Of a DNA stretch of 64,000 nucleotides, positions 12,759-44,602 are shown one piece after another; the stretch's first letter is position 1; each line of letters opens with the position of its first letter. The stretch is taken from the IMG/VR virus record IMGVR_UViG_3300050343_000270, positions 1-64,000 of that record; one strand, 5' to 3'. The DNA is from a virus. Below the pieces are notes generated by a model that saw nothing but the letters and a program-made list of their open reading frames with translations, ran no database searches and was not told where the DNA came from. The translations under genes were made by a program, and so were the position numbers.

Positions 12759-13007
12759 ATGCAACAAATGAAAAACATGATAGAGAAACAACAGAAACGC
12801 GGTCGAGGTCGTCCCAAAGGTGGTAAAAGTTTTACCAATTTAACCATGAGTCAACTCAAGGATTTTATTGGCGAACATCAATGCATCCCCGTTAGTAGGG
12901 TTTGGCTTGAGAGTATGAATATTGAAGTCGTTGACACAAAGCGCGTCATTCAAGCTCAACCTAGTGCTACTACCTCGCCTACGGTTACAATGAAACTTAG
13001 TGATTGA
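12759..13007 (+). CDS. AT-hook DNA-binding protein
   Basis: KRGRGRPKGG motif; exact start uncertain. Confidence 0.65.
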   Translation: MQQMKNMIEKQQKRGRGRPKGGKSFTNLTMSQLKDFIGEHQCIPVSRVWLESMNIEVVDTKRVIQAQPSATTSPTVTMKLSD

Positions 13008-13043
13008 CCTTTTTGTAGTATTTCGCTACTTTCCCCTACCTTT

Positions 13044-13586: not shown

Positions 13587-14647
13587 AATTTAAAAAATTT
13601 AAAAAAATAGGTCAATTCAAAGATTCAATTGTATCAATTAAATCGCAGAGTCAATACGTTGGTAAAGATGAAAACGGCGAATCTATTTACGATGAAACAA
13701 GATGTTTGCCCACCGTTGTTTTCAAAGGAACTGTTAAATTACATGGGACAAATGCTGGAGTTCATTACGACTTTGTCACAAACGAAATAACTCCTCAAAA
13801 AAGAACATCTTATTTAACCGAAGATTTTGGACATTTCGGTTTCACGGAATATATTCGGGCGTTTCAAGACTTTTATCAATATTCATGCAGGAAAGTATGC
13901 GAAAAAGCAGGTATCACTGAAGTTGTTGTATTTGGTGAATGGGTAGGAGAAGGCATACAGAAGAATGTCGCCATTTCAGAACTGTCTAAAAGATTTGTTG
14001 TTTTTGAGGCTTTTAGTCCAGAAAAAGGATGTTACCTAGATCCCTGTGATTTGGATGAATTTAGAGATCATTCTAACAAGTGTTATAACATTAGAGACTA
14101 TAAACAATACGAGGTAACAGTTGATCTTAATCATCCAGAACTAGCAATCAAAGAAATAAACAATATTATAGATGAAGTAGAAAAGTGTTGTCCAGTTGCT
14201 AAAGCCATGCTTGAAGCTGAGTGTCCAGAAAAATGCGTTGATAGGGATGTGTTTCTTGGTGAAGGCGTTGTTTTTTCAAATAGACATCCATTCAATTCTT
14301 CGTTTAAATCGAAGGGAGAAAAACATTCTGCTCACGGCGGTTCTAAAAGACCTTCCGTTGATCCAATTAAAGCCGCCAACATTAAAGATTTTGTTAAACA
14401 AGTTGTCACAGAAGATCGCCTAGAGCAATGCTGGGGAGTAATCGAACAAGAATACGGTGAGGGTAATATGACAACAAAACAAATAGGAGAATTAATGGGT
14501 TGGATTTTTAAGGATATTATTTCCGAAGAGGGTGATGCCTTGGCTCACAACAATTTATGCAAAAAAGATATTGGTTCAGAGGTAGCTAATACAGCAAGAC
14601 CTTGGTTTATCAATAAGATTAATTCATTCCAATTTAAAACAATTTAA
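13583..14647 (+). CDS. RNA ligase (Rnl2 family)
   Basis: Motif I KLHGTN, FGEW, GEGVV and FKSKG, with a C-terminal Rnl2-like domain (VTEDRL...DIISEE). Confidence 0.85.
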   Translation: MKFKKFKKIGQFKDSIVSIKSQSQYVGKDENGESIYDETRCLPTVVFKGTVKLHGTNAGVHYDFVTNEITPQKRTSYLTEDFGHFGFTEYIRAFQDFYQYSCRKVCEKAGITEVVVFGEWVGEGIQKNVAISELSKRFVVFEAFSPEKGCYLDPCDLDEFRDHSNKCYNIRDYKQYEVTVDLNHPELAIKEINNIIDEVEKCCPVAKAMLEAECPEKCVDRDVFLGEGVVFSNRHPFNSSFKSKGEKHSAHGGSKRPSVDPIKAANIKDFVKQVVTEDRLEQCWGVIEQEYGEGNMTTKQIGELMGWIFKDIISEEGDALAHNNLCKKDIGSEVANTARPWFINKINSFQFKTI

Positions 14648-19495: not shown

Positions 19496-21478
19496 ATGAA
19501 AACTAAAGTTAAAAGCACACCGATTATCGCAAGCAAAGGAATGGATTCTTCTATCATGTCAATGGATAACAAGGGCAAAGAAATGGCTTGTTTCTTTTTG
19601 AGAGATAAGATTTACTCTAACAAAATTCAAGCAGTAGTTAGAGAGTATATTTGTAATGCTGTTGATGAGCATGTCAAGTATAACGTTGATCGTCCTGTCG
19701 AGGTAAACCTAACAGCGCAGGGTCTGAATGGTGCTATATTCTCTGTTCGTGATTTCGCCAATGGCTTATCGGAGGATGCAGTTCGGAAAATCTTTGGATG
19801 CTATTTCAAGTCTACCAAGTCAGAAACGAATGAAAGTATCGGCGGGTTCGGAGTCGGATCAAAAGCTGGTCACGCATATACCGATGCTTTTAATATCATC
19901 TCTTACTTTGATGGTGTCAAGACCAGCTACTCTTGTATGCTTGGTGCTGGTGAGTCGGGAGTTCCTGTCGGTCATATCTACAAGATGGGTGAGTCACCAA
20001 CCGATGAGACAGGTGTTGAGATCAACCTAACAGTCAAAGAAGCAGAAAAAGACAAAGAAAGGGTTTTTCACAACGCTCAGTCTGATGTATCAAAGTTCAA
20101 GTATGAGATAATTCGCTTTATTCAGTTTGCTCATTCACCTATTACCGCAAAAATCTTTGATAATGTTTATGACACGCCCGAACAAAAACATTCTGTCGTT
20201 ATTGATGGTTTCACAGTCGCAATCGTAGATGCTTTCACCACAGGTTCTAATCATTACAAACGGGATGTTGTTAACAATACGAAGATTTGTATTAAGATGG
20301 GCGATGTAGTTTATGGTTCGGCGTTCGTCCCTAGAGGTTTTGGTGTTTCATGTAAGTCGCATCACTTTATCACTATCACCGCCCCTATGGGTCAAATTGA
20401 CATACCTATTAGCCGTGAGAATATGGAAGATACAGTTCGTAATCGGCGTGTGAAGGAAAAGATTGATAAAGTATTGGAGAAAATAATAAACGATGATTCA
20501 CAAAAATTTAAAAAGAAAACACTTATTGATCTTGTTGATGAATACATAACTAGTCCGTCTTTTGGGTCTAGTGAGGACGGAAATTATTTCAATTACAGTA
20601 ATGACGTTATCTATGGCTTAATGGATAAAGTAGCTACATCTATACGTGATACTACCACACCAGAACTTAAAACATCAGTTAAAAACGTTGATAAAGAGAA
20701 TGGTAAGCCTGTTGTAGTTTTCGTGCCAAACAACCGCACAACTGATAAGTGGATTTCTAAAGTAAATGCATGGTGTCTTTCAAACGACAAAAAGTATTTG
20801 ATTCTTACAGGACGCGAAGACATATTGGCTTTAGACACTAAAGATTCATTTCACTTGATAGATGCTCGCAAACTCAAAATATCCAAGAAGCAAGATAGAA
20901 CTCGCGCCGTTATTTATTACAACGGTGAAAACTGGAAAACAATGAGTGCATTAGAGTTTCACAATCACCTTCGTGAATACTATAATTTATCTGAGGCTAA
21001 GGATGAAGCGCAAGCCAAGAGGCAAAATGCCCAACTAGCTAAAACAGGAAAAGATATTGAGGTATTAATAGGTTTCATTCTTAATCCAGAGAAAAGCCGT
21101 TATTCTTGGAACGCATCTCCTTTTTATGTCGGGGCGAAAGGTCTCTTAAAAGACTTGAAGGATATTGGAATCGCCGTCAACAGTCCTATCTCTATCCGCA
21201 AAACTACCATTCAAGACGAAAATCAAGAAAAAAATCAACAAGCAGTTTATTCAAGCAACATTCAGAAGATGAGTTGGGTTTCCGACAGAACAAAGGATAT
21301 TGTAAAGAAGCACCCCGATAAATCCCAGAGAATTGTCGATTTGCTTGAAAGTATTCGATCAGAAGGTTCTCTAAGAGGCAAGATATTGACGCAATTCAAT
21401 GCCGATATGAAATACTGCAACGCACAGCAAACAAACCTATCAAAATCAGACATGAAGAAAATCCTAAACTTAGTTTGA
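19496..21478 (+). CDS. rIIA: rIIA-like lysis inhibition/anti-exclusion protein (GHKL ATPase N-terminus)
   Basis: KIYSNKIQAVVREYICNAVD, VRDF..GLS, STK, GGFGVGSK; adjacent to rIIB. Confidence 0.88.
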   Translation: MKTKVKSTPIIASKGMDSSIMSMDNKGKEMACFFLRDKIYSNKIQAVVREYICNAVDEHVKYNVDRPVEVNLTAQGLNGAIFSVRDFANGLSEDAVRKIFGCYFKSTKSETNESIGGFGVGSKAGHAYTDAFNIISYFDGVKTSYSCMLGAGESGVPVGHIYKMGESPTDETGVEINLTVKEAEKDKERVFHNAQSDVSKFKYEIIRFIQFAHSPITAKIFDNVYDTPEQKHSVVIDGFTVAIVDAFTTGSNHYKRDVVNNTKICIKMGDVVYGSAFVPRGFGVSCKSHHFITITAPMGQIDIPISRENMEDTVRNRRVKEKIDKVLEKIINDDSQKFKKKTLIDLVDEYITSPSFGSSEDGNYFNYSNDVIYGLMDKVATSIRDTTTPELKTSVKNVDKENGKPVVVFVPNNRTTDKWISKVNAWCLSNDKKYLILTGREDILALDTKDSFHLIDARKLKISKKQDRTRAVIYYNGENWKTMSALEFHNHLREYYNLSEAKDEAQAKRQNAQLAKTGKDIEVLIGFILNPEKSRYSWNASPFYVGAKGLLKDLKDIGIAVNSPISIRKTTIQDENQEKNQQAVYSSNIQKMSWVSDRTKDIVKKHPDKSQRIVDLLESIRSEGSLRGKILTQFNADMKYCNAQQTNLSKSDMKKILNLV

Positions 21479-22852: not shown

Positions 22853-22932
22853 GTAAGTCACTTAGTATCAACGAGTTACGCCCAAGAGGGGGGCGCTTCG
22901 CCGTAACTCATTGAGTATCAACGAGTTATGAC
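22853..22932. repeat. 80-bp double-palindrome element, copy 1 of 9
   Basis: Two TAA(G/C)TC-N13-GA(G/C)TTA sites 50 bp apart with a G-rich linker. Confidence 0.9.
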
Positions 22933-23114
22933 TATTTTTTTGTTAGAGTGTTAAACCAGAAAACCCCGCCCCCTGTGTTCTAACAGGAGACGGGGAAGCG
23001 CCACAGAAAAGATTTTTTAAAAAATGCTATTGTCTAACATGTTCGCTAAGAACAATTAGCATAGATAAAAAGATGCAAGCCATGATTGAATATATATCCA
23101 TTAGACTTGTTAGA

Positions 23115-23825
23115 TTAGGCGCAAGGCTCGATTACAAAGCCGCTCGCATCCTTCTTGGCTAGTCCTTTTTCTATCAGTCCAACCACTACGCCTTTTTTGT
23201 CAAGGAAGCGTAAGTCGCTGTCGTCGCCGTCTATTACCTCGAAACCGTTCCATGTCTTAGGAAGTGAGCCGCGAAACACTGCCGCGATATTTCCGCCGCT
23301 TTTAAGAACTGAAACCATTTCAAGGTCAGAACTTTCTTCGCTCCGTGAGAGTGTTAGAGAATAGTTGTTAGGCAATTCTCCATTAAGAAATTGAGTCATT
23401 CTGTCAACTGATTTGGTATAGTCGTAAAAGATTTGATCTTTAAACTTATCAAACACATTTAAACCGTCAAAATGTTTCATATTTTCCCACGGCAAGTCAC
23501 TTGTTAGATTGAGACGAAAGCAAGCCTTCATTTTTTTTCTTGTCGCAGACTTAACAGCTTTTGTTATTTCATCGGATAATTGAGCCATAAAGTTCTTGCG
23601 ATCTTTAAACACTCGAATTGTTTTCTTTATTCGAGCCTCTTGGACATTTTTCATTGCTCCCCGTCCAGCAGTGTTCAAACATGCCATTGCGCATCCTTTA
23701 CTTGCCCACTTGCACACGTTGAAGCCGCTTACTTTTGACGGCGCAAGGTGAATGCCAAATGTTTTCCATCCCTTTTTTTCTCCCTTTGCTGTCTTGCTAT
23801 TTCCTGAGTTTAGTATTTTCTGCAT
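23115..23825 (-). CDS. Conserved phage protein, Gp88-like
   Basis: NSKTAKG, LAP, VC..AS.GC..ACLNTAGRG, RLN.TSD, FYDYTK and DGD.SDLRFLD. Start follows TACAAT-N6-ATG. Confidence 0.8.
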   Translation of the reverse strand: MQKILNSGNSKTAKGEKKGWKTFGIHLAPSKVSGFNVCKWASKGCAMACLNTAGRGAMKNVQEARIKKTIRVFKDRKNFMAQLSDEITKAVKSATRKKMKACFRLNLTSDLPWENMKHFDGLNVFDKFKDQIFYDYTKSVDRMTQFLNGELPNNYSLTLSRSEESSDLEMVSVLKSGGNIAAVFRGSLPKTWNGFEVIDGDDSDLRFLDKKGVVVGLIEKGLAKKDASGFVIEPCA

Positions 23826-23926
23826 GGCGGTATTGTAACAGAATTGCGAATGCACACAAGCTTTTTTAAATTATTTTTTAATCTTTTTTTTATCACTTTT
23901 TACTTGACAAGCGTGATCTGTTAGAT

Positions 23927-24505
23927 TTAGTTAGATTTGATCTGAGACGAAAGCCAGAGGTGATCAGTCAAAGCCTTTGCCTTCTTAAAAATTGGCGATA
24001 CAGATACAGTTGTGTCGAACCTGCGGTATTCTATGAGAGTAAGCAAAAACTTCTTTTCTTTTATGTAGGTCTTAGCGAACTTAGGGTCATTTTCGGTGAT
24101 GTCTCTTGTGTTAGATATGAGGTCGGCTAATTTAATGATTAGAGGAGTGTTACCTAGCGAAACAAGCCTCCAAGCCTCTGATTCTTTTCTTGCTTTTCTG
24201 TTCCAAGCAGGAAAGTTGGTTTTAGTGAATACATCTGTTAGATCAAGTATAACACTTGCATTAATTCTGCCAAACTTTTCCACCAATTTCTCGAAACTGT
24301 AGTCCGCATTAATCGGCGCAACATCTTCTAACACATCATGCCCCAAAGCTCCAATAGTGAAATCATCGCCATAGTAACCAAAAGACTGAAGAATCTCAAG
24401 AACTTCTTCTGTGTGAGTCCAGTAAGGAAAGCCAGTATACTTTCTTTTGTGGTTTATGGAGTCGTGTGCTTCCCTGAAGAAAGTTATTAATTGGTCGGTT
24501 GTCAT
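23927..24505 (-). CDS. HD-domain phosphohydrolase, RelA/SpoT hydrolase-like
   Basis: AH...RKYTG.PY..H...HDVLED...LTD...IKLADLISN. True start at 24505 after TATAAT-N6. Confidence 0.85.
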   Translation of the reverse strand: MTTDQLITFFREAHDSINHKRKYTGFPYWTHTEEVLEILQSFGYYGDDFTIGALGHDVLEDVAPINADYSFEKLVEKFGRINASVILDLTDVFTKTNFPAWNRKARKESEAWRLVSLGNTPLIIKLADLISNTRDITENDPKFAKTYIKEKKFLLTLIEYRRFDTTVSVSPIFKKAKALTDHLWLSSQIKSN

Positions 24506-24668
24506 GGCTGTATTATAGCGCAACGGAGGAGTGAAGCAACTGTTTTTTAATGTTTTTTTTGTGGAACAAAATGTTCCACGGAATAGTCGTAAGTCCTTCA
24601 TTATCAACGAGTTACGACGGTGCGGGGGGCGCTTCGCCGTAACTCGCTCTGTTTCAACGAGTTACGAC
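24506..24668 (-). promoter_or_regulatory. Cassette copy 2: sigma70 promoter + GTGGAAC-N5-GTTCCAC operator + double palindrome
   Basis: TTGCTT-N16-TATAAT on the minus strand; operator 24561-24579; element 24589-24668. Confidence 0.85.
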
Positions 24669-24683
24669 TATTATTACGATATT

Positions 24684-24959
24684 TTAGTGCTTTACCCTTT
24701 CGCACAGTTTGTGGCAACAGTACCCCTCTGCTTTCGCAACCATGTCTTGCCTCATCACCTCCATGTCTGCTTTGAGTTGTGGATCTTCTTTGCACATAAC
24801 GTCATACGATAGAGACGCGTCAACTAACTTATTGCCTTCTCTAACATATTCTTTTCCTAGATTAACTTCCAAGGTTTCGGGGTTGTAGTAAACGCGCATT
24901 AAGATAGGACTCCCCCCATCTTCGCACGGTATCAATTGATCTACTATATGTTTAGGCAT
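24684..24959 (-). CDS. Hypothetical protein
   Basis: 91-aa ORF in an early operon. Confidence 0.6.
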   Translation of the reverse strand: MPKHIVDQLIPCEDGGSPILMRVYYNPETLEVNLGKEYVREGNKLVDASLSYDVMCKEDPQLKADMEVMRQDMVAKAEGYCCHKLCERVKH

Positions 24960-24961
24960 TG

Positions 24962-25225
24962 TTAATCGTTGTTTAAAATGTTTATGATCTCCTCCGAGAT
25001 ACCCAGAACAGAAGCAATCCTCACATTCATTTCGAACGCTTGCGTTGCAGTGTCTTTTTGATCATCCTCAGATTTTACATATTGATTCCGATCATGAAAA
25101 GATTCATAAGGAAATTTGTCTAATGCATTTTTAAGGCTTGTGTGGAAGTCTACCCATTCTTTAATTAAGGATTCGCGACTATTTCCATTCATGTGTATTG
25201 CGGGGGCGATTTGGCGAGCGTTCAT
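24962..25225 (-). CDS. Hypothetical protein
   Basis: 87-aa ORF with TAAAAT-N6-ATG upstream. Confidence 0.6.
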   Translation of the reverse strand: MNARQIAPAIHMNGNSRESLIKEWVDFHTSLKNALDKFPYESFHDRNQYVKSEDDQKDTATQAFEMNVRIASVLGISEEIINILNND

Positions 25226-25249
25226 GGTGATATTTTAAGTGTTTAGGTG

Positions 25250-25615
25250 TTAACTGTCAAGATTTTTGGCGAAGATTTTATAACCTTTTTTATTCCCTTT
25301 GATGACGACTAAATCGGCGTGATGCACTGGATTAGATTCTGCGTCTACAAACGTTGGAGCTTTGTATGGATTATAGAAGATTTGATTTTTAGCGGTTGAG
25401 TAATCACGCCGCCCGTTGCATTCGCCCACGACAACAGCATGAACGTTTTTTTTCTTTTCTTTAAGGACTCGCTGTCTACCAGCTTCAGAAACTTTGAATT
25501 CCGCATTTGTTAGAACAACCTCTTCGGCGTAGCGCACAACCTTCCATACGCCATTGACTTTTTCTTGCAATGAGAGGCACCGCCGATGGAGGTTAAAGTA
25601 TATTCTCGTTTTCAT
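25250..25615 (-). CDS. Conserved phage hypothetical protein
   Basis: YFNLH...FKVSEAGRQRVLKEKKKNVHA...YNPYK pattern. Confidence 0.75.
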   Translation of the reverse strand: MKTRIYFNLHRRCLSLQEKVNGVWKVVRYAEEVVLTNAEFKVSEAGRQRVLKEKKKNVHAVVVGECNGRRDYSTAKNQIFYNPYKAPTFVDAESNPVHHADLVVIKGNKKGYKIFAKNLDS

Positions 25616-25622
25616 GTTTTAA

Positions 25623-25916
25623 TTAATCTGTTATAAAAACTTGCTTACCATCCACCTTCCAGAAACCCTTATTGCTTTGCTTCTTGGCATGTTTGATAAT
25701 GTTCTTTGCCGTGCCTCTAACATAAGAGTCTTCAGAGTCTGCAAATCGCCCAATTAGGCTGATCACCTTTTTAAGCTGTTGCTTTGAGGTAGATATAGAA
25801 AACCCGTTGCTGATTAGGTCACCATTGGCTATACCAACGGCTTCTAACATATCTTGATAGTCCGATGACTCCATAACCCTTTTGAGATATAGAACCCCCT
25901 GCTTTTGCTTTGTCAT
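25623..25916 (-). CDS. Hypothetical protein
   Basis: True start at 25916 (MTKQKQ) after TATAAT-N6. Confidence 0.65.
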   Translation of the reverse strand: MTKQKQGVLYLKRVMESSDYQDMLEAVGIANGDLISNGFSISTSKQQLKKVISLIGRFADSEDSYVRGTAKNIIKHAKKQSNKGFWKVDGKQVFITD

Positions 25917-26079
25917 GGCTGTATTATAGCGCAACGGAGGAGTGAAGCAACTGTTTTTTAATGTTTTTTTTGTGGAACAAAATGTTCCACGGAACCTCTG
26001 TAAGTCACTAAGTATCAACGAGTTACGACCGTGCGGGGGGCGCTTCGCCGTAACTCGCTCTGTTTCAACGAGTTATGAC
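25917..26079 (-). promoter_or_regulatory. Cassette copy 3: promoter + operator + double palindrome
   Basis: Promoter and operator identical to copy 2; element 26000-26079. Confidence 0.85.
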
Positions 26080-26198
26080 CATCAATGTTACTTCTTGTGT
26101 ATTAGTTCCCCGAAAAAATAGAAAAGAGAAACAATTAATATCATCGCTATTATGAATCCTACAACTTCTGTAATTATTGCCTCCATGATCTTATTATA

Positions 26199-26639
26199 TT
26201 AGAGTTCCTTAATGCGTATGAATTTTAATCTTCCTTCGTGTTTATAGCCACTTGAATCCATCCATGTAATAAAGCTGATACCTATACCACACACTCCGTC
26301 GATGATATCTTGTGTGTATTTAAGTTTGAACTGTTCATATTGTTCTTCTGTCAGGTCGCCATAATCAATATTACGTCTACGGTTTTTTGTTCGTTTCTTC
26401 GAATCTACAGCCTCATTAAATTCTTCCTCGCTAAGTTGTTTACCTTCGATGTACCATTCCTTATAGCCATTAGCATATTCGCAAGCAGGTCCATCTAGAC
26501 GGTGACGCTCACCATTTTGATACCAAGCCTTATATCCATCAACACCTTCAAAAGCAGGTCCATTTAGACGGTGACGCTCATCATTTTGAAACCATTCTCT
26601 AGTACCGTCGTCGTTTACTTTTACTTTATACTCTTGCAT
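26199..26639 (-). CDS. MORN-like repeat protein (HRLDGPA repeats)
   Basis: 22-aa repeats W.QN...HRL.GPA.E. Confidence 0.8.
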   Translation of the reverse strand: MQEYKVKVNDDGTREWFQNDERHRLNGPAFEGVDGYKAWYQNGERHRLDGPACEYANGYKEWYIEGKQLSEEEFNEAVDSKKRTKNRRRNIDYGDLTEEQYEQFKLKYTQDIIDGVCGIGISFITWMDSSGYKHEGRLKFIRIKEL

Positions 26640-26643
26640 AATC

Positions 26644-27162
26644 TTATTCCTTAATACGAAGTTTCTTTACATCGATGTTCATTGCTTTTGCTATATCCTC
26701 AAGAGTTACCTCGACTTTGTTATTTCTATTATTGAATTCTTCTTCAGTAAGTTTTATACCGTCAATATACCAAGCCTTATATCCATCAGCATCTTCAACA
26801 GCAGGTCCATCTAACCGATGAAGCTTATCATTTTGATGCCAATACTTATTTCCATTAGAACGTTCAACAGCAGGACCATCTAGACGGTGAAGCTCATCAT
26901 TTTGATACCATTCCTTATCACCATTAGCCAATTCAACAGCAGGTCCATCTTCACGATGAAGCTTTCCATTTTGATACCATGTCTTATTGCCATTAGAATT
27001 CTCAAAAGCAGGACCATCTAACCGATGAAGCTTATCATTTTGATACCAAGCCTTACTGCCATTAGAACGTTCAATAGCAGGTCCATCTAACCGATGAAGC
27101 TTATCATTTTGCCGCCACCACTTATCGCCGCTGTCTTTTACTTTTACTACGTACTCTTGCAT
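26644..27162 (-). CDS. MORN-like repeat protein (five LHRxDGPA repeats)
   Basis: 66-bp tandem repeats; true start MQEYVVK at 27162. Confidence 0.85.
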   Translation of the reverse strand: MQEYVVKVKDSGDKWWRQNDKLHRLDGPAIERSNGSKAWYQNDKLHRLDGPAFENSNGNKTWYQNGKLHREDGPAVELANGDKEWYQNDELHRLDGPAVERSNGNKYWHQNDKLHRLDGPAVEDADGYKAWYIDGIKLTEEEFNNRNNKVEVTLEDIAKAMNIDVKKLRIKE

Positions 27163-27195
27163 AATTTTTTTTGTTTTATCCCTTTCGGTAAGGAC

Positions 27196-27350
27196 ATTAT
27201 AGCGCAACGGAGGAGTGAAGCAACTGTTTTTTAATGTTTTTTTTGTGGAACAAAATGTTCCACGGAACCTCTGTAAGTCATTGAGCATCAACGAGTTACG
27301 ACGGCGCGGGGGGCGATTCGTCATAAGTCGTTAAGTATCAACGAGTTACG
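27196..27350 (-). promoter_or_regulatory. Cassette copy 4: promoter + operator + double palindrome
   Basis: Promoter identical to copies 2 and 3; element 27273-27350. Confidence 0.85.
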
Positions 27351-27584
27351 GATTAGAAAAGTCTACGTGCAAAACGTTTTTTTTATCCTCTTCGATTTCT
27401 AAACTAACAGATTCTATGAACCCCGCGAGCATTTGGGGATCTTTAAAAATCAAATCATTTAGAACTCCCTCTGGATATTCTTCATCTGTTAGAAACTCTC
27501 CTTCAACTGTAAATTTTACTATTTGTGTCACTAAATTGTTGCGCCCCCGAAGGGGCTTTGTTATTAGGCATTGACCTTGTTAGA

Positions 27585-27929
27585 TTAGAACCAGCACGAA
27601 TAGAAAACCTGCTTGCCCTCTCTCAAGGTATCATACGCATCAGAGATGAAAGAAAGAGTTTGTTCTTTTTTGTATTCATCATATCTCGAATCATTCCCAT
27701 AGAAAAATCCGTGTGTTTCTGGTAGCGCGTCATTAACGACAGCCGCTTCAAGCCTTTCGATGTCGCTCATATTCAGTTCAAGCTCTGAACAATTCCAATC
27801 GACGCTGTTTCCCTTGGTGCGCCATAGAGCCTCCATCCATCCGTCCAACGCATTGTGCTTGCGCCAACTTTGGATTTCGATGGTGTCCCCGTCTTGATTT
27901 CTTGTATATGCCCGTTGATCTAGTCCCAT
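27585..27929 (-). CDS. Conserved phage hypothetical protein
   Basis: MGLDQ...WRKHNAL.GWM...LP.T.GFFYG...FYSCW pattern. Confidence 0.75.
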   Translation of the reverse strand: MGLDQRAYTRNQDGDTIEIQSWRKHNALDGWMEALWRTKGNSVDWNCSELELNMSDIERLEAAVVNDALPETHGFFYGNDSRYDEYKKEQTLSFISDAYDTLREGKQVFYSCWF

Positions 27930-28000
27930 TTTATTGTTCCTTTCTTTTTAGTTGTTTGTTAGTTGTTAGTTTTTTTGGTTTTGTCCCTCTCGGTAAGGAC

Positions 28001-28164
28001 ATTATAGCGGAAATGGCGGAAAAAGCAAGAACCTTTTGCATGTTTATGCACTTTTTTTGTGGAACAAAATGTTCCACAGGATCGTCATAAGTCCCTAAGC
28101 GTCAACGAGTTACAACCGAGCGGCGGGGGCTTCGTCATAACTCGTTCTATTACAATGACTTACG
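28001..28164 (-). promoter_or_regulatory. Cassette copy 5: promoter + operator + double palindrome
   Basis: TTGCTT..TATAAT; operator 28059-28077; element 28087-28164; terminator-like hairpin 28207-28234. Confidence 0.8.
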
Positions 28165-28281
28165 TGGGTTATTTACGCTGTTAGAAACTGTTAGATTGGG
28201 GGTAAGAAAAACCCCCGCTGGTTGGCGGGGGAAAACTGTTAGGTTTATTACTTCCGTCTAGTGACGGGGATCTGTTAGCTG

Positions 28282-29046
28282 TCAAGCTGGGAGAACTAGA
28301 CCAGTCTCATTGTCAACTGTTAGGCTAGGCGAGTGATTCGCCAAGCGGTCAAAGTTGGATTGGATTGTCATTGTTCTCTGTGGCAACTTGGAAACGTCTG
28401 AACCCTTGAGCATCTCGGTGCAAGCGTTGTAGAGATTCCAGAGGTTGTTACCCTTGAACTCCTCATGGCGTGGAGCTTCAAACTCTTTGACAGTCTTGTA
28501 AACGTCGCGAGCAGAGAACCCCTTGGAGTCTACCAGATCAATCATCAAGTCAGCCGCTTGATTGCGCGTGATCTCAGTCTCTTGATACGCCGTGATGCGC
28601 TGTGCCATGTCAGACCAGTGAGAGGTGACGCGAGAAACAGCAGAAGATAACACGCGAGGCAAGTCTGTTAGGATTCGCGGAGTATGACGGCGAGCAAGTT
28701 TGATATCAGAGGAGAAACAAAGGTTATCACACACAAGCATCTGATTCCCGATGCAAATTGCGGAAGCAAAAGCCTTGTCATGGCTGTTACGGATTCCGAC
28801 AACTAGATTTCGGTCATCTGCTTGAATGTCCTTGCCAGTGATAGCGAAGCCGCCGAAGTAGCGAAGATCACCACGGGCTAGACCATGCTCCTCATGTGTG
28901 ATTTCTAAGCCAGCGCGATTAAGAGCCTTGCGTGTATAATCTACGAGCGTAGCGTGAGGAATTGGCGTGTGGGTGTCCGTTCCAGCAGGTGTGTTGAGGT
29001 TAGCAAGCTGGTCGGATTCGATGCGGTTTTTTGATAGTATTAACAT
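28282..29046 (-). CDS. DUF932-like protein
   Basis: THTPIPH...GIRNSHDK...VCDNLCF...RRHT...NLWNLYNA.TE.LK. Confidence 0.75.
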   Translation of the reverse strand: MLILSKNRIESDQLANLNTPAGTDTHTPIPHATLVDYTRKALNRAGLEITHEEHGLARGDLRYFGGFAITGKDIQADDRNLVVGIRNSHDKAFASAICIGNQMLVCDNLCFSSDIKLARRHTPRILTDLPRVLSSAVSRVTSHWSDMAQRITAYQETEITRNQAADLMIDLVDSKGFSARDVYKTVKEFEAPRHEEFKGNNLWNLYNACTEMLKGSDVSKLPQRTMTIQSNFDRLANHSPSLTVDNETGLVLPA

Positions 29047-29313
29047 GTTTTTTTTGTTTAGTTGGTTAAGCGTCTTTCGTGACTGCGGGGACATTATAAC
29101 CTAAAACATTTTCATAAGCAAGCTATTTTCGCATAAAAAACGATTTATTTTCACATGTTCCACGGAAATGTTCCACGCGCAAATCGACCTAACAACACCT
29201 GTTAGAGTGTCAAATACTCCCTAACAATGCCAGATATTTGGGTAAATAACCATTTGGAGTTTCTGTTAGTTTAAGTGGTTCAGTGTCAATGAGTTATGTG
29301 TTTGTAGATATAC

Positions 29314-29393
29314 GTAAGTCCTTCAGTATCAACGAGTTACGACGGTGCGGGGGGCGCTTCGCCGTAACTCGTTCAGTATCAACGAGTTATGAC
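29314..29393. repeat. 80-bp double-palindrome element, copy 6
   Basis: Matches the consensus; extra single site at 29271-29298; TGTTCCAC tandem at 29156-29176. Confidence 0.9.
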
Positions 29394-29476
29394 GATTTTT
29401 CTGTTAGAGTCTTGAGCAAAAAAACCCCGCCCCCCGATCTAACAGGGGACGAGGCTAACACTACTCCAGAAAACTG

Positions 29477-29749
29477 TTAGGCTACGACCTCGATTCCTGT
29501 TAGGTGCAACGTGCGGTATTTCTCCTGCGCGTTGTCGTCAATGTCAGTCGCTAAGACTTTAAGGCAACGTCTGCCATTTTTCTTGGCATGCCATACGTCT
29601 TCCACGGCGTGAATTTTAAAAGTGCGCTCCTTGTCTCTGCGCACAGTTGACTTCCCGTGGTTAATGTATCGCACAGTGCGATCTTTGAGAAGGTTTGCGA
29701 TCTCCAGAGCGGAGGCGGTTATATCTGTGTTTGTGTTTGCGATTTGCAT
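29477..29749 (-). CDS. Hypothetical protein
   Basis: TTGACT-N17-TACAAT-N6-ATG gives start MQIAN. Confidence 0.6.
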   Translation of the reverse strand: MQIANTNTDITASALEIANLLKDRTVRYINHGKSTVRRDKERTFKIHAVEDVWHAKKNGRRCLKVLATDIDDNAQEKYRTLHLTGIEVVA

Positions 29750-29851
29750 GGTTGTATTGTAGTTGGTTTTTTCGGTTGAGTCAATCCCTTTTTTTCGGAT
29801 TGTAAGATTATTTAGTGCTTTTAAAACGTCCATTTGTTTTATGTGTTTGTG

Positions 29852-30019
29852 TTATTCTGGCACGATTGCCATTACATGCTCGATAGAGAAGCCGATTTCT
29901 TCTCCGTCCTCAGTCGTTCCCCAGAATGGGCGGTGAGGGTTATTTTCTACAACTTCGTCAACGATGACACAAGCTCCATTCACGATCACTTCTGTGCCGA
30001 TTTTGATTTGTTCTTTCAT
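29852..30019 (-). CDS. 55-aa hypothetical protein (paralogue of 33650..33844; not in the ORF track)
   Basis: MKEQIKIGTEVIVNGACVIVDEV...FWGTTEDGEEIGFSIEHVMAIVPE. Confidence 0.65.
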   Translation of the reverse strand: MKEQIKIGTEVIVNGACVIVDEVVENNPHRPFWGTTEDGEEIGFSIEHVMAIVPE

Positions 30020-30162
30020 AACTGTTGTAATTTTGATGGGTTAACTTCTTCTTCTCCGACTTGCTCACTCTCGATAACGACATTGCCGTTGTCAAGAATC
30101 TCAACAACTTGAACGTTGTCGCCGTCGAACCTAAACCACTGATTAATCTCTATCTTCATCAT
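30016..30162 (-). CDS. 48-aa hypothetical protein (not in the ORF track)
   Basis: TATAAT-N6-ATG; ATGA overlap with the next gene. Confidence 0.6.
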   Translation of the reverse strand: MMKIEINQWFRFDGDNVQVVEILDNGNVVIESEQVGEEEVNPSKLQQL

Positions 30163-30255
30163 GCATATATTATAGTAGAAAACTGGATTTTTACAAGCTA
30201 TTTCGACATTAAAAACGCTTTTTTTTTACTTTTTAACTCATTCATTATCAACGAC

Positions 30256-30774
30256 TTAGAATTGTTCCACAGAATTGTTCCACAGAGATAGCTCGAATTT
30301 GCGTCTTTTCACTAATCCTTTGCGTATTTTTCCCCCCGCCATGCGATACATAGGCATTACTTCAGAAACGCTCTTATAGTTTCCATCGTTTAAACGTCCC
30401 TCTTGAGAAACAAGCTGATAGAGTGCGCCCCTTCCGCAGTTGTATGTGAAACTTGTTAGAGCGGCGAGTTGGTAATCTGTTAGAGGCACTTTAACAATAG
30501 AAAGAACTGTTTTTTTGTATTCGTGTAATTCATTTTCTAACAACTCGAAAGCCTCCCGCTCGGAGATGAAACCTTTTGAAACTGCTTTTCCTGTGTGACC
30601 ATATCCAATTGTTAGTTTTCCGCCGCAACACACATACGCCTTGGCTCTGAATCCCTCGAAATGTTTAATGCCTTGCGTCATGTGATACCAAGGCACGTTA
30701 GGTTTTACTAACAGAGCATTGTTAGAAGCCAAGGCTGGGGTGATGAAAAGCGCGAACAGTATTATAATTTTCAT
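30256..30774 (-). CDS. GH24 phage lysozyme with N-terminal signal peptide
   Basis: FEG.R..AY..GKLTIGYGHT...ALTSFTYNCG...GLVKRR..E; N-terminus MKIIILFALFITPALA. Confidence 0.88.
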   Translation of the reverse strand: MKIIILFALFITPALASNNALLVKPNVPWYHMTQGIKHFEGFRAKAYVCCGGKLTIGYGHTGKAVSKGFISEREAFELLENELHEYKKTVLSIVKVPLTDYQLAALTSFTYNCGRGALYQLVSQEGRLNDGNYKSVSEVMPMYRMAGGKIRKGLVKRRKFELSLWNNSVEQF

Positions 30775-30780
30775 GGTGTA

Positions 30781-30936
30781 ATTATACTCTAACAGATGGG
30801 CTTTGGCTAGCATTTATTTTTCTTTTTTTGTGGAACAAAATGTTCCACGGAATAGTCATAAGTCCTTCATTATCAACGAGTTACGACGATGCGGCGGGGG
30901 CTTCGCCATAAGTCGTTCATTATCAACGAGTTACGA
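30781..30936 (-). promoter_or_regulatory. Cassette copy 7: promoter + operator + double palindrome
   Basis: TATAAT-N6-ATG; operator 30830-30848; element 30858-30936. Confidence 0.85.
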
Positions 30937-30955
30937 TTGCTTTTTTATTGAATTA

Positions 30956-31036
30956 TGGTGGAGCATAGGGGAATCGAACCCCTGTCCGCGATCACTGGGT
31001 TATACCCTATCACTCACGTCTAAACCTGTATGCCCC
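30956..31036 (-). ncRNA. Minimal tmRNA-like RNA (tRNA-like domain only, 81 nt)
   Basis: GGGGCAT/ATGCTCC-ACCA acceptor stem with G3.U wobble; stemless D-loop ACAGGTTTAGAC; GGAC-AGGGG-TTCGATT-CCCCT T-arm; no tag ORF between them. Confidence 0.8.
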
Positions 31037-31042
31037 GTAATC

Positions 31043-31190
31043 ACCTTCATACTCTCTCGGATACACACGGGAATCTTTATACCCGTCCAATGGAGTCACC
31101 CATAGTTAACACAACCAGTTTCCGTGACTAAATGGAAGTTTACTTGTGCGGCAAGTTTACTGCTTAATGCACCTGAGAAAGTATGTAGGT
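31043..31190 (-). ncRNA. Candidate rod-shaped structured RNA (6S-like?)
   Basis: ~22-bp closing stem ACCTACATACTTTCTCAGGTGCAT/GTGTATCCGAGAGAGTATGAAGGT, a central bubble and an inner AGTCAC/GTGACT stem. Confidence 0.5.
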
Positions 31191-31199
31191 TTTAAATTG

Positions 31200-31421
31200 T
31201 TAGTTGTTAGAAAGGGCGACCTCGGCTTTGTAGTTTTCTTCGTCGATGCGCTCAAGCTCCTCAAGCTCTTCTATCTCTTCGTTCAGATTTTTCAGTTCTT
31301 GCTGTGCTTGGAAAACATCGAAATTTATTTTCCATGAAGCAGAACCGCCATTATTGAATTCATCTATTTGAAAGTCGAGGCGAGCGGCGCGTTGCTTTTT
31401 GCTAAGTAGTGTTTCAGTCAT
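31200..31421 (-). CDS. Hypothetical coiled-coil protein
   Basis: TACAAT-N6-ATG start. Confidence 0.6.
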   Translation of the reverse strand: MTETLLSKKQRAARLDFQIDEFNNGGSASWKINFDVFQAQQELKNLNEEIEELEELERIDEENYKAEVALSNN

Positions 31422-31427
31422 GGGCAT

Positions 31428-31592
31428 ATTGTACCAAAAAAGAGCGAAACCGCAAGAACTTTCTGCATGTTTTTTAACTTTTTTTGTGGAACAAAATGTT
31501 CCACGGAATAGTCATAAGTCCTTCATTATCAACGAGTTACGACGGTGCGGCGGGGGCTTCGCCGTAACTCGTTCAGTATCAATGAGTTATGA
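31428..31592 (-). promoter_or_regulatory. Cassette copy 8: promoter + operator + double palindrome
   Basis: Operator 31486-31504; element 31514-31592. Confidence 0.85.
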
Positions 31593-31802
31593 TTGTTAGA
31601 AGCTGTTAGATACATATCAGAGTTCCTTAGTATTCAGTTTTTCCCATCGTTCGATTTTTATGCCTAACCGTTCGATTTTAGCACCCAGCGTTGAAGCCTT
31701 GATCATCAGCCTCTTCAGTCTCCAACAATTGATATTGTTTATTAGGTTTTTCATTTTGTAGTGTGGTGTTTCGTATCTCATACTATTATTATATTAGAGT
31801 TC

Positions 31803-32668
31803 CTAAAGATATTCTTTCACATATCCGCGAGCATCATCTAAATGCTCTGCATCATCAAGTTCGTTGAGAATTGCAAGCTTGATCTTCTCAACCATTTCAG
31901 GAAGGTCTGATTTGCTGAACTCTAAATGCTCCATACCCTCGCAATAGTCAAGGATAATGTTTTTAATCTTATTCTTTTCGTTCATATCTTATTATATTAG
32001 TGTTTCGCAAGCTGTCTTTTTCTCACTTGCTTGGATTCATTATAGTATAATTCTCAGAAAGCGCAAGGATTATTTCGCCCTTTTATCACTTTGTCAGTTC
32101 TCCCAAGGAAATTTAGTTACGCTCGCCTCACTCCACCCGTCGATAAGACCACGCGCCCACTCAGCTTCTTCTCGCGCTTCGTTCCTTTCGCGTTCAAGTC
32201 TTTCAACATCTTCAAGCTTTAACGACTTATCATTTTCTTTTTTAAGGCGGCGAATCTCTTGAATGAGCATATTCATTTCATCAATGAAGTCGTCAACTCC
32301 TGACATTTTGTCACCGTAAACATCGGTTACAGTTCCATCGTTGCAGTTGTATTCGTAGTTGTGGGCGGTGAATTCGTTTTTCATACCTAATTATATTAGT
32401 GTTTCAATTAGTCTACAACTTCCTCTGTCAATTCGGTGGTAACCACCTTAGTTAATTTGACGACTTCTACTTTTTCGTTAGGGATGATTACCTGAACTCC
32501 ATGACCTAAAACATAGGTATATTTGTCATTCTTGTATGGTGTTTTGGTCTTGTTAGTAATCTCTTCTCCAACATCGATTGTGCGTTCCACGCCATGCCAT
32601 TTGAACGTGTGTTGTTCGCGCATGCGGTGCATGTAGTTTGTGGTAGTTTTTCTGTTAGTGTTTTTCAT
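31803..32668 (-). other. Three small hypothetical genes (31803-31985, 32094-32384, 32408-32668)
   Basis: Co-oriented ORFs; a ~95-bp promoter/leader is duplicated at ~31997-32092 and ~32681-32777. Confidence 0.6.
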
Positions 32669-32722
32669 AGTAGTATTTTTTTAGTGTTTCGCAAGCTGTC
32701 TTTTTCTCACTTGCTTGGCTAT

Positions 32723-32889
32723 ATTATAGTATAATTTTCAGAAACCGCAAGGATTATTTCGCCCTTTTATCACTTTTTTTTGTGGAACAAAATGTTCCAC
32801 GGAGACTCTGTAACTCGTTCATTATCAACGACTTATGACGGTGCGGCGGGGGCATCGTTGTAACTCGTTCAGTATCAACGACTTATGAC
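32723..32889 (-). promoter_or_regulatory. Cassette copy 9: promoter + operator + double palindrome
   Basis: Operator 32782-32800; element 32810-32889; terminator-like hairpin 32915-32952. Confidence 0.85.
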
Positions 32890-32992
32890 GATTTTTCTGT
32901 TAGAGTTTTGAGCCAAAAAAGCCCCGCCTCCCACACTACTAGGAGACGAGGCTAACACTACTGCACTATGAAAGCTGTTAGATTGTTAGATG

Positions 32993-35366: not shown

Positions 35367-36215
35367 TCATTTTTGTTTATTGTTTTGTGTAAGTTTGCTG
35401 ATGTGGTGTCCGATGTGGTCACCTTTGTGGTCGCCGACTTGGTCGCCTTCGTGGTAGCCGATGTGGTCGCCGTCGTGGCGTCCGATATGGTCGCCCCAGT
35501 GGTAGCCGATGTGGTTGCCCCAGTGGCTACCTTCGTGGTCGCCGTAGTGGAGTCCTTCGTGGTCGCCGTGGTGGTTGCCGATGTGGTCGCCTTCATGGTC
35601 GCCTTTGTGTCTGCCTTTGTGGTCACCATCGTGGCTTCCAATGTGGTCGCCTTCGTGGTAGCCGATATGGTCGCCCCAGTGGTAGCCTTTGTGGTCTCCG
35701 TTGTTGTAGCCGATATGGTCGCCTACGTGGTCGCCGATGTGGTCGCCGTAGTGGAGTCCTTCGTGGTCGCCGTGGTGGTTGCCGTAGTGGTTACCCTCGT
35801 GTTTACCTTCGTGCTTGCCAATGTGGTTTCCGTAGTGGTCGCCCCAGTGGATGCCTTCGTGGATGCCGTAGTGGCTTCCTTTGTGTTTGCCGTAGTGGTC
35901 GCCGTAGTGGCTTCCTTTGTGGTCGCCGTGGTGGTTGCCGTAGTGGCTTCCTTTGTGGTCACCTTTGTGGTCACCTTTGTGGTTGCCTCCGTGGTCGCCG
36001 TCGTGGTCCCAGTGGTTTCCGTAGTGGTTTCCGACATGGTCGCCGTAGTGGCATCCGTAGTGGTCGCCGTAGTGGAGTCCTTCGCGGTTGCCGTAGTGGT
36101 TGCCTATGTGGTTGCCTATCAGGTCAGTTTTCAACTTTGTTAAGACTAGCTTTCCGTCTTCGTCATATCCAAACGACGCAACCTCTGATATTTCTTTTAG
36201 TGTTGGTTCTTTCAT
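35367..36215 (-). CDS. His/Gly-rich tetrapeptide (G-x-H-x) repeat protein
   Basis: About 60 consecutive 12-bp GxHx units between short unique termini. Confidence 0.8.
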   Translation of the reverse strand: MKEPTLKEISEVASFGYDEDGKLVLTKLKTDLIGNHIGNHYGNREGLHYGDHYGCHYGDHVGNHYGNHWDHDGDHGGNHKGDHKGDHKGSHYGNHHGDHKGSHYGDHYGKHKGSHYGIHEGIHWGDHYGNHIGKHEGKHEGNHYGNHHGDHEGLHYGDHIGDHVGDHIGYNNGDHKGYHWGDHIGYHEGDHIGSHDGDHKGRHKGDHEGDHIGNHHGDHEGLHYGDHEGSHWGNHIGYHWGDHIGRHDGDHIGYHEGDQVGDHKGDHIGHHISKLTQNNKQK

Positions 36216-42703: not shown

Positions 42704-44602
42704 GTGGCTTGGGATAAAGGAAAACAGCGTTATAGATATGAGTATTCAGCGACGAAAATCAACGAGAAATTGTTGGCTATTGAAGGGGATATGAAAGAAG
42801 AGGAGGCGAAATATCAACTGTATCGTTTTTTACGAAACAATGTTGGTTATACTTGCGAACTCTTTCTTGGGGTTAGATTATTTCCGTTTCAGGAAATGGC
42901 GATAAAATCTATGATGATCGGAGATTACTCGATGTTCGTCTTTTCTCGTGGTTTATCAAAGACTTTCTCAACAGCCATCTATGTTATTTTAGAATGCTTA
43001 TTGAATCCTAGCGCAAATATTGGTGTTATTGCTGGGACATTCCGTCAGTCCAAACAAATATTTTCAAAGATTGAAGATATCATGGCAAAGCCCGAAGCGG
43101 CTATGGCGCGAGAGTCTGGATACAAGCTTTCCAAAGGAACAGATGCATGGACAATGAAGATTGGTAAAAACAAAGCAATTGCTTTACCCTTGGCTAACGG
43201 GGAGAGACTTCGTGGTTTTCGTTTTAATCGTATTGTGCTTGACGAGTTCCTAACCATACCAGAAAAGATTTTCACCGAAGTTATTTTGCCGTTTCTCGGT
43301 GTTGTTGAAAACCCTACGGAAAGGGAAGAGATTTACGATATAGAGAGTATGTTGATTGACTCTGGAGAAATGAAAGAGTCTGACAGGCATGTTTGGTCCA
43401 ATAACAAACTAATCATTCTATCATCGCCAAGTTTCAAGTTCGAATACATGTATAAATTATACTGTAAATACCGAGACCTTATCAGCGGCGTATACGAGAG
43501 TGCCGACGAAGAAGATGACGAGGACGCGGCGGATGATGCTTATCGTATTATTATGCAGTTAAGTTATGACTGTGCGCCGAATACACTTTATGATAAAAAC
43601 CTTTTGAAGCAAGCTAAATCAACAATGAGCGAAATGCAGTTCGAGCGAGAGTTTGGTGGTCAGTTCGTGGATGAGAGTGATGGTTATTTTCGTTTATCTA
43701 AGATGATGAAATGCACTATTCCTGATGGCGAATACCCTGCGGCAGAAGTGGTGGGTAATCCTAAAGATCAATACATACTATCATTTGACCCTAACTGGGC
43801 TGGAAATACAAGCGCCGACCACTTTGCTATGCACGTGTTTAAGCTATTGCCTGACTCCAAGAAGTCTTGCTTAGTCCACAGTTATGCAATCGCGGGAGTT
43901 TCTCTAAAAGACCACATGAGGTATTTTCATTATATATTAACTCATTTTAATATCGTGGGTATCTGCGGTGACTATAACGGAGGGGTTCAGTTTATCGACA
44001 GTTGTAACGAAAGTGAATTATTCAAATCGTCAAATATCAATATTGGAGTAATAGGAATGGATATTGACAAATCAGAAGAATATAATGACAACATGGTCAA
44101 GCTTAAAAATGAATATAATATTAGTGGTAGAAAATATTGTATTCTAAGGAAGCCCACATCTCAGTGGATTCGTTCAGGAAACGAACTACTTCAAGCAAAT
44201 ATTGACCACCAGAAAATTCTATTTGGGGCTAGATCGGTAGATGACCACTTTGACGCTCAAAGAAAAAAGAAACTTCCCATTACTCAGATAAAATGGGACA
44301 TGAATATGTTGGGTAGCAACAATTCTGCTAAGATGATCGACTTCATAGACCACCAAAAAACCATAATCGAACTTACAAAGTCAGAATGTGCAAATATTGA
44401 AGTTAAGAGCAACCCCCAAGGTAGCCAATCTTTCGATTTACCCCAAAATCTTAAGAGAGCAACTGGTCCCAACAGAGCGCGAAAAGACTCCTATTCCGCA
44501 CTAGTTCTAGGAAATTGGTTTATCAAACTATACTACGACATGAATGAAGCAAAAGATAAACCCAAACCTGTTAACGACTTCATTCCAAGAATCATAAAGT
44601 AA
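42704..44602 (+). CDS. terL: Terminase large subunit
   Basis: LFPFQ Q-motif, SRGLSKT Walker A, LRG.R...VLDE Walker B, SFDP nuclease Asp, KDSYSA. Confidence 0.92.
   Translation: MAWDKGKQRYRYEYSATKINEKLLAIEGDMKEEEAKYQLYRFLRNNVGYTCELFLGVRLFPFQEMAIKSMMIGDYSMFVFSRGLSKTFSTAIYVILECLLNPSANIGVIAGTFRQSKQIFSKIEDIMAKPEAAMARESGYKLSKGTDAWTMKIGKNKAIALPLANGERLRGFRFNRIVLDEFLTIPEKIFTEVILPFLGVVENPTEREEIYDIESMLIDSGEMKESDRHVWSNNKLIILSSPSFKFEYMYKLYCKYRDLISGVYESADEEDDEDAADDAYRIIMQLSYDCAPNTLYDKNLLKQAKSTMSEMQFEREFGGQFVDESDGYFRLSKMMKCTIPDGEYPAAEVVGNPKDQYILSFDPNWAGNTSADHFAMHVFKLLPDSKKSCLVHSYAIAGVSLKDHMRYFHYILTHFNIVGICGDYNGGVQFIDSCNESELFKSSNINIGVIGMDIDKSEEYNDNMVKLKNEYNISGRKYCILRKPTSQWIRSGNELLQANIDHQKILFGARSVDDHFDAQRKKKLPITQIKWDMNMLGSNNSAKMIDFIDHQKTIIELTKSECANIEVKSNPQGSQSFDLPQNLKRATGPNRARKDSYSALVLGNWFIKLYYDMNEAKDKPKPVNDFIPRIIK

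Follow-up and report, generated by a model that had tools for sequence, protein, structure and literature searches.

Bacteria rescue stalled ribosomes and control the quality of translation mainly by trans-translation, a pathway that is also a drug target. Concerning phages, tmRNA genes were found in 2.3% of the genomes examined in an ARAGORN survey (PMC9004378), and full-length tmRNAs are known from the mycobacteriophage Bxz1 group, Bacillus phage G and the OM43 phage Melnitz, which has a two-piece ssrA (PMC4131195, PMC9004378). Mycobacteriophage DS6A is listed as "TLD only" (Hudson, Lau and Williams 2014, PMC4131195). As cited in two later papers, Mao et al. (2009) found that a DS6A-like RNA, chargeable or not, strongly inhibits tmRNA in E. 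coli (PMC4131195, PMC11915505), and titration of SmpB is given in the former paper as a possible cause. Two ideas for the DS6A RNA are given in these papers, which cite Mao et al., a decoy for SmpB and a ribosome rescue without tag (PMC4131195, PMC11915505). The original prediction put forward the same two for the RNA studied here, but did not mention DS6A. A tmRNA database paper from 2025 repeats the DS6A case and adds plastid and jakobid mitochondrial forms without the tag coding sequence (PMC11915505). These forms are devoid of the mRNA-like domain; in jakobid mitochondria and in some plastids they are found alongside SmpB and are regarded as functional. According to the same paper they include the jakobid RNAs of Jacob et al. 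(2004) and plastid forms of ~65 bp in Mallomonadaceae (PMC11915505). In a full-text literature search we found no description of a tag-less phage tmRNA beyond DS6A.

Sequence and fold of the 81-nt RNA

The window, by which we mean the whole 64-kb stretch of viral DNA that was analysed, carries on its minus strand at 30956..31036 a gene that we assigned, based on the Rfam model RF00023, a covariance model of our own (R1) and the fold, to a mini-tmRNA consisting of the tRNA-like domain only. The 81-nt sequence quoted in the original prediction is identical to this strand letter for letter. All of the following elements lie on the minus strand. The 7-bp acceptor stem, supported by sequence and family covariation, starts with RNA 1-7 (31030..31036), in which G3 pairs with U70, and its 3' strand is followed by the discriminator A73 and an encoded CCA (RNA 71-81, 30956..30966); judged from the sequence and the Rfam consensus, this is an alanine identity. 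The D-loop analogue (RNA 8-19, 31018..31029) consists of 12 nt without a stem, carries GG and ends with GAC. When aligned to the Rfam consensus, its GG, U and G are the equivalents of G13/G14, U17 and G19 in E. coli tmRNA. The P2 region (RNA 20-49, 30988..31017) is formed by GUGA/UCGC, lengthened by a C.G pair from GAC/GGAC, and in the minimum free energy (MFE) fold it encloses an internal loop in which G.A and G.U pairing is possible, besides a bulged A and the hairpin GGGU-AUA-ACCC. The GGAC linker (RNA 50-53, 30984..30987), whose A corresponds to E. coli A334 in the Rfam alignment, leads into a T arm with a 5-bp stem and a 7-nt T loop (RNA 54-70, 30967..30983). These features, of which the acceptor stem, the stemless D-loop, the short P2 with its hairpin and the GGAC linker into the T arm had been pointed out in the original prediction, were read directly from the sequence, and the MFE structure from RNAfold (-27.2 kcal/mol) is the same fold.

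The 81-nt RNA matched RF00023 (tmRNA) with 55.3 bits against a gathering score of 47 and an E value of 5.7e-19 for the 64-kb window, which is far from chance, and this was the sole Rfam match in the window to reach threshold. The alignment extends over model positions 1-374 but involves both ends only, jumping 303 central positions. The jumped positions are those of the tag template, helix 5 and the pseudoknots (PK1-PK4), which are absent from the 81 nt. The two strands of P2 are separated by 27 nt, and therefore a tag reading frame cannot fit; accordingly, the RNA has none of the components of an mRNA-like domain, neither a resume codon nor a tag frame with its in-frame stop. The missing tag ORF had been stated in the original prediction. 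The alternative of a canonical tRNA was not supported. ARAGORN reported 0 tRNA and 0 tmRNA genes in the 64-kb window, the fold has neither D stem nor anticodon arm, and in the Rfam search the tmRNA model was the best member of its clan, ahead of tRNA. Rfam, the family covariance model and the covariation in relatives all agree on tmRNA rather than tRNA features.

Model R1 was built from 11 IMG/VR members of the family described below, with the window left out. It recognized the window RNA over its full length (1-82) with 60.2 bits and an E value of 1e-11. The RNA is the second-lowest scorer of the family under this model, and its P2 is short and irregular relative to the family consensus.

In E. 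coli tmRNA, residues U17, G19 and A334 contact SmpB, providing a pocket for Trp122 of the protein together with a contact at G19 whose mutation abolishes SmpB binding (PMC8363625). The equivalents of all three residues, identified by sequence and Rfam alignment, are present in the window RNA. Taking these results together, we regard it as nearly certain that the 81-nt RNA is a tmRNA cut down to its tRNA-like domain. At the level of sequence, it holds every element for recognition by RNase P, alanyl-tRNA synthetase (AlaRS) and EF-Tu.

The RNA family and its described counterparts

The RNA of DS6A corresponds to tmID 11587 of the tmRNA Website, and model R1 placed it at JN698994 28478-28560. Like the window RNA, it is phage-encoded, ~80 nt long and composed of an alanine-type acceptor stem, a stemless D-loop analogue, a T arm and a P2 shut by a short hairpin, with no tag frame and no pseudoknots. 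Its score under model R1 (56.3 bits) is in the same range as that of the window RNA. The DS6A RNA displays the usual layout of the family, a 7-bp P2 with an A-rich bulge and a small hairpin; most members, like DS6A, have a P2 of 6-7 bp of this kind, whereas the window RNA has 4-5 bp, an internal loop and the GGGU/ACCC hairpin. The two RNAs also differ at the 3' end, where the window RNA encodes CCA and that of DS6A ends with CUA, and in the conserved, folded 164-nt leader described below, which is a feature of the window RNA. As for the phages, that of the window is uncultured, probably marine and about 100 kb or more in size, while DS6A is an actinophage, and the hosts differ. The class of tag-less phage tmRNAs is thus already known from DS6A, and the window RNA adds a member. 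The breadth of the class and its behaviour as a cassette are absent from the published descriptions that could be searched.

With canonical tmRNA (SsrA, RF00023) the window RNA shares G3.U70, A73-CCA, the GG/U/G residues, GAC/GGAC and the T arm. The mRNA-like domain, helix 5 and PK1-PK4, accounting for 303 of the 374 model positions, are missing, and with no mRNA-like domain the RNA can neither tag a protein for degradation nor provide a stop codon. Full-length phage tmRNAs are likewise phage-borne members of the tmRNA clan, often situated close to phage tRNA genes, but they retain the tag template and are found by ARAGORN, neither of which applies here. The organellar tmRNAs are similar by description, consisting of the tRNA-like domain alone with no tag reading frame. 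They are accompanied by an SmpB that is encoded in the nucleus and targeted to the organelle, and they result from reductive evolution of the resident ssrA, whereas the window RNA is viral and would act beside an intact tmRNA of the host. Finally, tRNA-Ala and the alanine minihelix have in common with the window RNA the acceptor stem with G3.U70, A73, CCA and the T arm, and RNase P, AlaRS and EF-Tu should accept the window RNA as a substrate. The latter differs from tRNA-Ala in having no D stem, no anticodon arm and a D-loop analogue of the tmRNA type.

RNAs comprising only the tRNA-like domain form a family of 64-90 nt. We searched with a motif made of the hallmarks of this domain, allowing at most 45 nt between GAC and GGAC. 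Among IMG/VR sequences, 35 viral contigs matched (41 with a slightly looser form), giving 29 distinct sequences of 78-89 nt. The looser motif was found in only two short contigs of metagenome-assembled genomes (MAGs) when one genome per species was scanned for 185,579 prokaryotic species; with 41 viral contigs against these two, the family is phage-specific. A metagenome scan with a sub-pattern fixed to the T-stem sequence of the window brought 70 contigs with 35 distinct RNAs of 64-85 nt. Under model R1 the family scored 57-95 bits, compared to 37.3 bits or less for true tRNAs in the same loci. Some members are located inside ordinary tRNA arrays, and some of 64-65 nt lie a few nt past a stop codon and ~25 nt ahead of the next start. 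In one contig (L011 5905-6228, minus strand), an 83-nt mini-tmRNA is overlapped by an ARAGORN call of a 324-nt tmRNA that includes a tag peptide; the call is probably an artefactual extension from the 3' half of the mini-tmRNA.

The search patterns impose G3.U70, the D-loop motif, GGAC, the T-arm core and ACCA, and their invariance in the pattern-found sets is therefore uninformative. We checked these features free of pattern bias in DS6A and in three relatives found through a neighbouring protein (see below), and G3.U70, the D-loop motif, GGAC and the T-arm core were retained in all of them. Acceptor pairs 5-7 and T-stem pairs 1-2, which are not fixed by the patterns, are standard in 30 of 30 sequences, with 4-5 pair types at each. 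For pairs 1-7 of P2, standard pairing was seen in 23-30 of the 30, with many compensatory types. Covariation was calculated for the 30 distinct members on a model-guided alignment, as plain MAFFT misplaces the 5' ends. In the stems, 97.3% of the cells were paired and 171 double-sided changes were counted, compared to 50 in shuffled alignments; such changes occurred in 12 of the 20 stem pairs. The covariation score was reached in 0 of 500 shuffles, and pairing fell to ~50% in controls with slid partners. All three stems of these RNAs covary.

The family-wide covariation is one of several results that bear on the weakest explanation of the locus, a remnant without function. Such a remnant, be it from a tmRNA or tRNA-Ala gene in decay or from a host ssrA att fragment left by a once-temperate ancestor, would be in line with the low score of the window copy and with the fact that phages integrating into ssrA carry its 3' end, but we consider it very improbable and rejected it: both halves are present in an intact, compensated fold with no D stem or anticodon arm, the 81-nt allele is kept in seven other contigs from two phage backgrounds with changes only in loops and the bulge, and no integrase or recombinase domain was found among the 86 ORFs of the window.

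Leader, relatives and gene neighbourhood

Judged from its genes, the window derives from a new phage of lytic type. It encodes an rIIA homologue (19496-21478), a large terminase (42704-44602), a tape measure protein (59821-63249) and a phage lysozyme with an N-terminal signal-like segment (30256..30813, minus strand; PF00959, 3e-33; PHROG 7, endolysin). The terminase is ~25% identical to its best deposited matches. Megablast revealed no near DNA relatives among 50,697 deposited phages or among plasmids, and distant blastn searches with the mini-tmRNA returned generic T arms only. The phage is uncultured and probably marine. CheckV estimated a related IMG/VR contig of 43 kb to be 36% complete, suggesting a genome of ~120 kb.

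The mini-tmRNA belongs to a 16-kb stretch (23.1-39.2 kb) of small genes on the minus strand, where it lies 163 nt past an ORF of 75 aa (31200..31427, minus strand) and 142 nt ahead of the lysozyme gene. The 75-aa ORF had no Pfam match and only a marginal match in PHROGs (phrog_10, a major head protein family; E 0.0044). No sigma-70-like promoter was found directly upstream of the mini-tmRNA, and the minus strand shows no terminator-like site in the interval that separates it from the 75-aa ORF; on these grounds the ORF is probably its co-transcription partner. Domains of SmpB, release factors or ArfB, Pth and aminoacyl-tRNA synthetases including AlaRS were not found among the 86 ORFs of the window, nor was SmpB found in five other viral contigs carrying a mini-tmRNA. 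The RNA must therefore work with host factors.

Directly 3' of the mini-tmRNA, at 30857..30936 (minus strand), is a pair of ~27-nt palindromic units spaced by 50 bp. Nine such intergenic modules are distributed over 22853-32890 (the 22.8-33 kb block), each with two ~27-nt units exactly 50 bp apart (6 near-exact matches against 0 expected), and the mini-tmRNA sits in one of them. Often a GC-rich terminator hairpin lies ahead of a module and GTGGAACA repeats lie behind it; in appearance the modules resemble operator pairs or RNA hairpins punctuating the early gene block. A GTGGAACA palindrome also occurs as the P2 of one family member, which does not belong to this phage group, and we judged this to be a coincidence.

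Several other features of the window were noted. The start region of the lysozyme ORF (30772-30813, minus strand) contains two in-frame ATGs, the second of which (30774) opens the signal-peptide-like segment just past a promoter-like site whose TATAAT is perfect; the true start may thus lie 13 codons beyond the annotated one. An ORF of 282 aa at 35367-36215 (minus strand) consists almost entirely of a 12-nt (4-codon) periodic repeat in at least 38 copies. On the plus strand, genes for a calcineurin-like phosphoesterase (11802-12482), a 180-aa protein and an RNA ligase (13583-14644; PF09414, 3e-13) may constitute an RNA/tRNA-repair cassette (11802-14644), which would suggest a conflict with host anticodon nucleases.

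The region between the stop codon of the 75-aa ORF and the mini-tmRNA (31037..31200, minus strand) is a strongly folded leader of 164 nt, conserved together with the mini-tmRNA. A closing helix of 22-24 bp, ending 6 nt before G1, surrounds three hairpins. The folding energy is -51 kcal/mol (z -4.38), and 0 of 200 shuffled sequences folded as well; the antisense strand is weaker (z -3.53) because several of the pairs are G.U. The leader had earlier been proposed as a candidate for a 6S-like RNA, but the fold is multi-branched and not a rod of the 6S type. Rfam gave no match in the leader at E<=1. An Rfam match to tmRNA_permuted (17.3 bits, E 0.56) was insignificant. Neither a conserved ORF nor a tag frame was found in the leader; stops occur in all frames, and the longest frame is broken by a 1-nt indel among relatives. 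The leader sequences of the relatives are too similar to reveal compensatory changes. It is probably part of the precursor transcript, and we infer that its long helix is a plausible site for RNase III.

Besides the window, the 81-nt allele is present in six contigs from metagenomes and in one from IMG/VR. Five of the former (L132, L135, L160, L168 and L170) are from the same phage group as the window, with 93-97% identity across the region. In the six metagenome contigs the allele differs from that of the window only at one D-loop base, at the T-loop purine (position 57, G or A) and at the bulged A, which is C in two of the six; the P2 region is otherwise identical. The sixth metagenome contig, L151, and the IMG/VR contig, L198, have the same sequence and represent a different phage. 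Their similarity to the region is confined to 255 nt at 94.5% identity, namely the mini-tmRNA and the 164 nt upstream, with unrelated flanks. It begins right past the stop codon of an unrelated upstream ORF and ends exactly at the CCA. In an MFE screen of 84 mini-tmRNA loci, only the window-type allele had a leader with such a long helix, and the other upstream-helix signals turned out to be coding sequence or unrelated folds. From these sequence comparisons, the mini-tmRNA appears to travel with its leader as a cassette of ~250 nt. The original prediction had considered the RNA by itself; its assignment to the tRNA-like domain stood, but membership in a larger conserved cassette had not been noticed.

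In L151 an array of 24 tRNA genes (6726-10896, minus strand) follows ~0.9 kb downstream of the cassette, whereas the window has no tRNA gene. The ~0.9 kb ahead of the array (10900-11800) is non-coding and opens with a tandem repeat of ~90 nt that terminates in an extended -10-like motif.

Three closer relatives were retrieved, without use of the RNA motif, through the 118-aa protein encoded at 29477-29833, to which their proteins are 87-94% identical. They carry a different mini-tmRNA of 69-70 nt (L125 5421-5489, L126 5421-5489 and L127 5437-5506), in which G3.U70 and ACCA are present and P2 is a plain 7-bp hairpin. The stem of this P2 corresponds to the CTAACAG motif over-represented in the phage and its complement, and the seventh acceptor pair is an A.A mismatch. 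This allele sits directly past the gene of the 118-aa protein, following a terminator-like hairpin with no T-run, while the window has at the matching slot a terminator hairpin with a T-run and no mini-tmRNA. The pair of palindromic units is found 3' of the mini-tmRNA in both slots, in the window and in relatives L037 and L038 (69-nt allele). A different allele in a different slot with the same palindromic pair indicates that the lineage keeps a mini-tmRNA while allele and slot are exchanged.

Proposed action on host trans-translation

The reading we prefer for the locus as a whole, with a probability of about 60%, is that the window RNA is a functional phage gene for a tag-less mini-tmRNA that lowers host trans-translation. 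The RNA would be transcribed together with the upstream 75-aa gene and the folded leader, as presumed from the lack of a promoter directly upstream and of an intervening terminator. RNase P would free its 5' end, possibly after RNase III cuts the long helix of the leader, host AlaRS would charge it, and it would bind host SmpB and EF-Tu. With no template or resume codon, trans-translation could not be finished, and the mini-tmRNA would thus compete with host tmRNA for SmpB and stalled ribosomes. As a consequence, ssrA tagging and degradation would fall during infection. For competition as the actual mechanism, which is drawn by analogy, we see roughly even odds.

Competition is the most economical reading and the only one with experimental backing, that of Mao et al. 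(2009) as reported in the papers citing it. Titration of SmpB, or inhibition of tagging, is favoured over a tag-less rescue and an RNA-processing signal. Several points count against it. The P2 of the window RNA is irregular and its family score low, and much of the invariance in the family stems from the search patterns. Transcription rests on read-through from the 75-aa gene, as no sigma-70-like promoter lies directly upstream. In addition, if charging is irrelevant to inhibition, as the work of Mao et al. is cited, simple titration of SmpB leaves the kept alanine identity, A73 and CCA unexplained. Their retention in independently found members hints at an action on the ribosome. To our knowledge, no benefit of blocking trans-translation has been shown for a phage to date.

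It is this strict alanine identity, implying that charging and entry into the ribosome matter, that keeps the next explanation alive, a productive rescue without a tag, which we consider unlikely. Here the alanylated mini-tmRNA would enter stalled ribosomes with SmpB and take over the nascent chain, and the peptidyl-RNA would then be freed by host ArfA/RF2, by ArfB, or by drop-off and Pth. Ribosomes would be freed and their products left unmarked, which would be useful if phage or defence nucleases yield many truncated mRNAs. G3.U70, A73 and a CCA or CCA-ready end are kept in the members found independently of the motif and in DS6A, fitting a need for charging; the RNAs in jakobid mitochondria and some plastids that lack the mRNA-like domain, and occur with SmpB, are thought to function (PMC11915505); and the RNA ligase and phosphoesterase of the phage suggest RNA repair, and so a conflict at the level of translation. 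However, once the chain has been transferred and translocated, the ribosome would be left with a vacant A site as before and be no better off, and ArfA or ArfB could act without the mini-tmRNA. In the window no gene was detected for a release factor, for ArfB or for Pth, and the sole experiment on such an RNA, as described in the papers that cite it, reports inhibition (Mao et al. 2009).

The position of the RNA between genes brings up another possibility, which in our estimate is distinctly improbable, namely that the tRNA-like shape mainly recruits RNase P, and the leader helix RNase III, in order to cut a polycistronic early transcript. The upstream mRNA would obtain a stable 3' end and the downstream mRNA a 5' end, and any effect on SmpB would be incidental. 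In this phage group the mini-tmRNA is always found in 3'-UTR or intergenic slots. The RNA is missing from most other intergenic modules of the window, two of which, at 29417-29468 and 32914-32965, hold a terminator hairpin with a T-run, and the mini-tmRNA of the relatives follows a terminator-like hairpin with no T-run. The tight placement of some 64-65-nt members between stop and start codons also fits, and cleavage by RNase P would leave the upstream mRNA ending in the very stable leader fold. On the other hand, RNase P requires only the minihelix of acceptor stem and T arm, which leaves the conserved D-loop analogue of the tmRNA type, GAC/GGAC and the SmpB-contact nucleotides unexplained, as well as the preference of Rfam for tmRNA over tRNA. 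Moreover, some members lie inside ordinary tRNA arrays, where extra punctuation is not needed.

Returning to the inhibition of trans-translation, a phage RNA imitating just the head of tmRNA, the part to which SmpB and EF-Tu bind, would by its nature inhibit the pathway or re-route it. The published phage case is one, DS6A; the same design is now found in the phage of the window, which is unrelated to DS6A and probably marine, as well as in dozens of other phages that are uncultivated, is nearly absent from cellular genomes and belongs to a class that ARAGORN misses. This raises the question of what lytic phages gain from tmRNA heads without a tag. The organization as a cassette and the replacement of alleles within a lineage point to a gene that is actively exchanged and retained. 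A broader proposal, which we put forward tentatively and hold to be rather doubtful in full, is that the mini-tmRNA is one half of a mobile RNA cassette of ~250 nt, transferred from one large marine phage to another unrelated one and from slot to slot between the genes of one lineage, that tag-less mimics are a widespread, unannotated strategy against trans-translation, and that the leader is a new structured RNA or a device for maturation by RNase III. If so, template-less, alanine-charged mimics would switch off or reroute host trans-translation across phages. Among the other loci, we also noticed a Pistol self-cleaving ribozyme (L013 5916-6012, minus strand; 50.7 bits against a gathering score of 34.5) located 2.2 kb from the mini-tmRNA of another phage.
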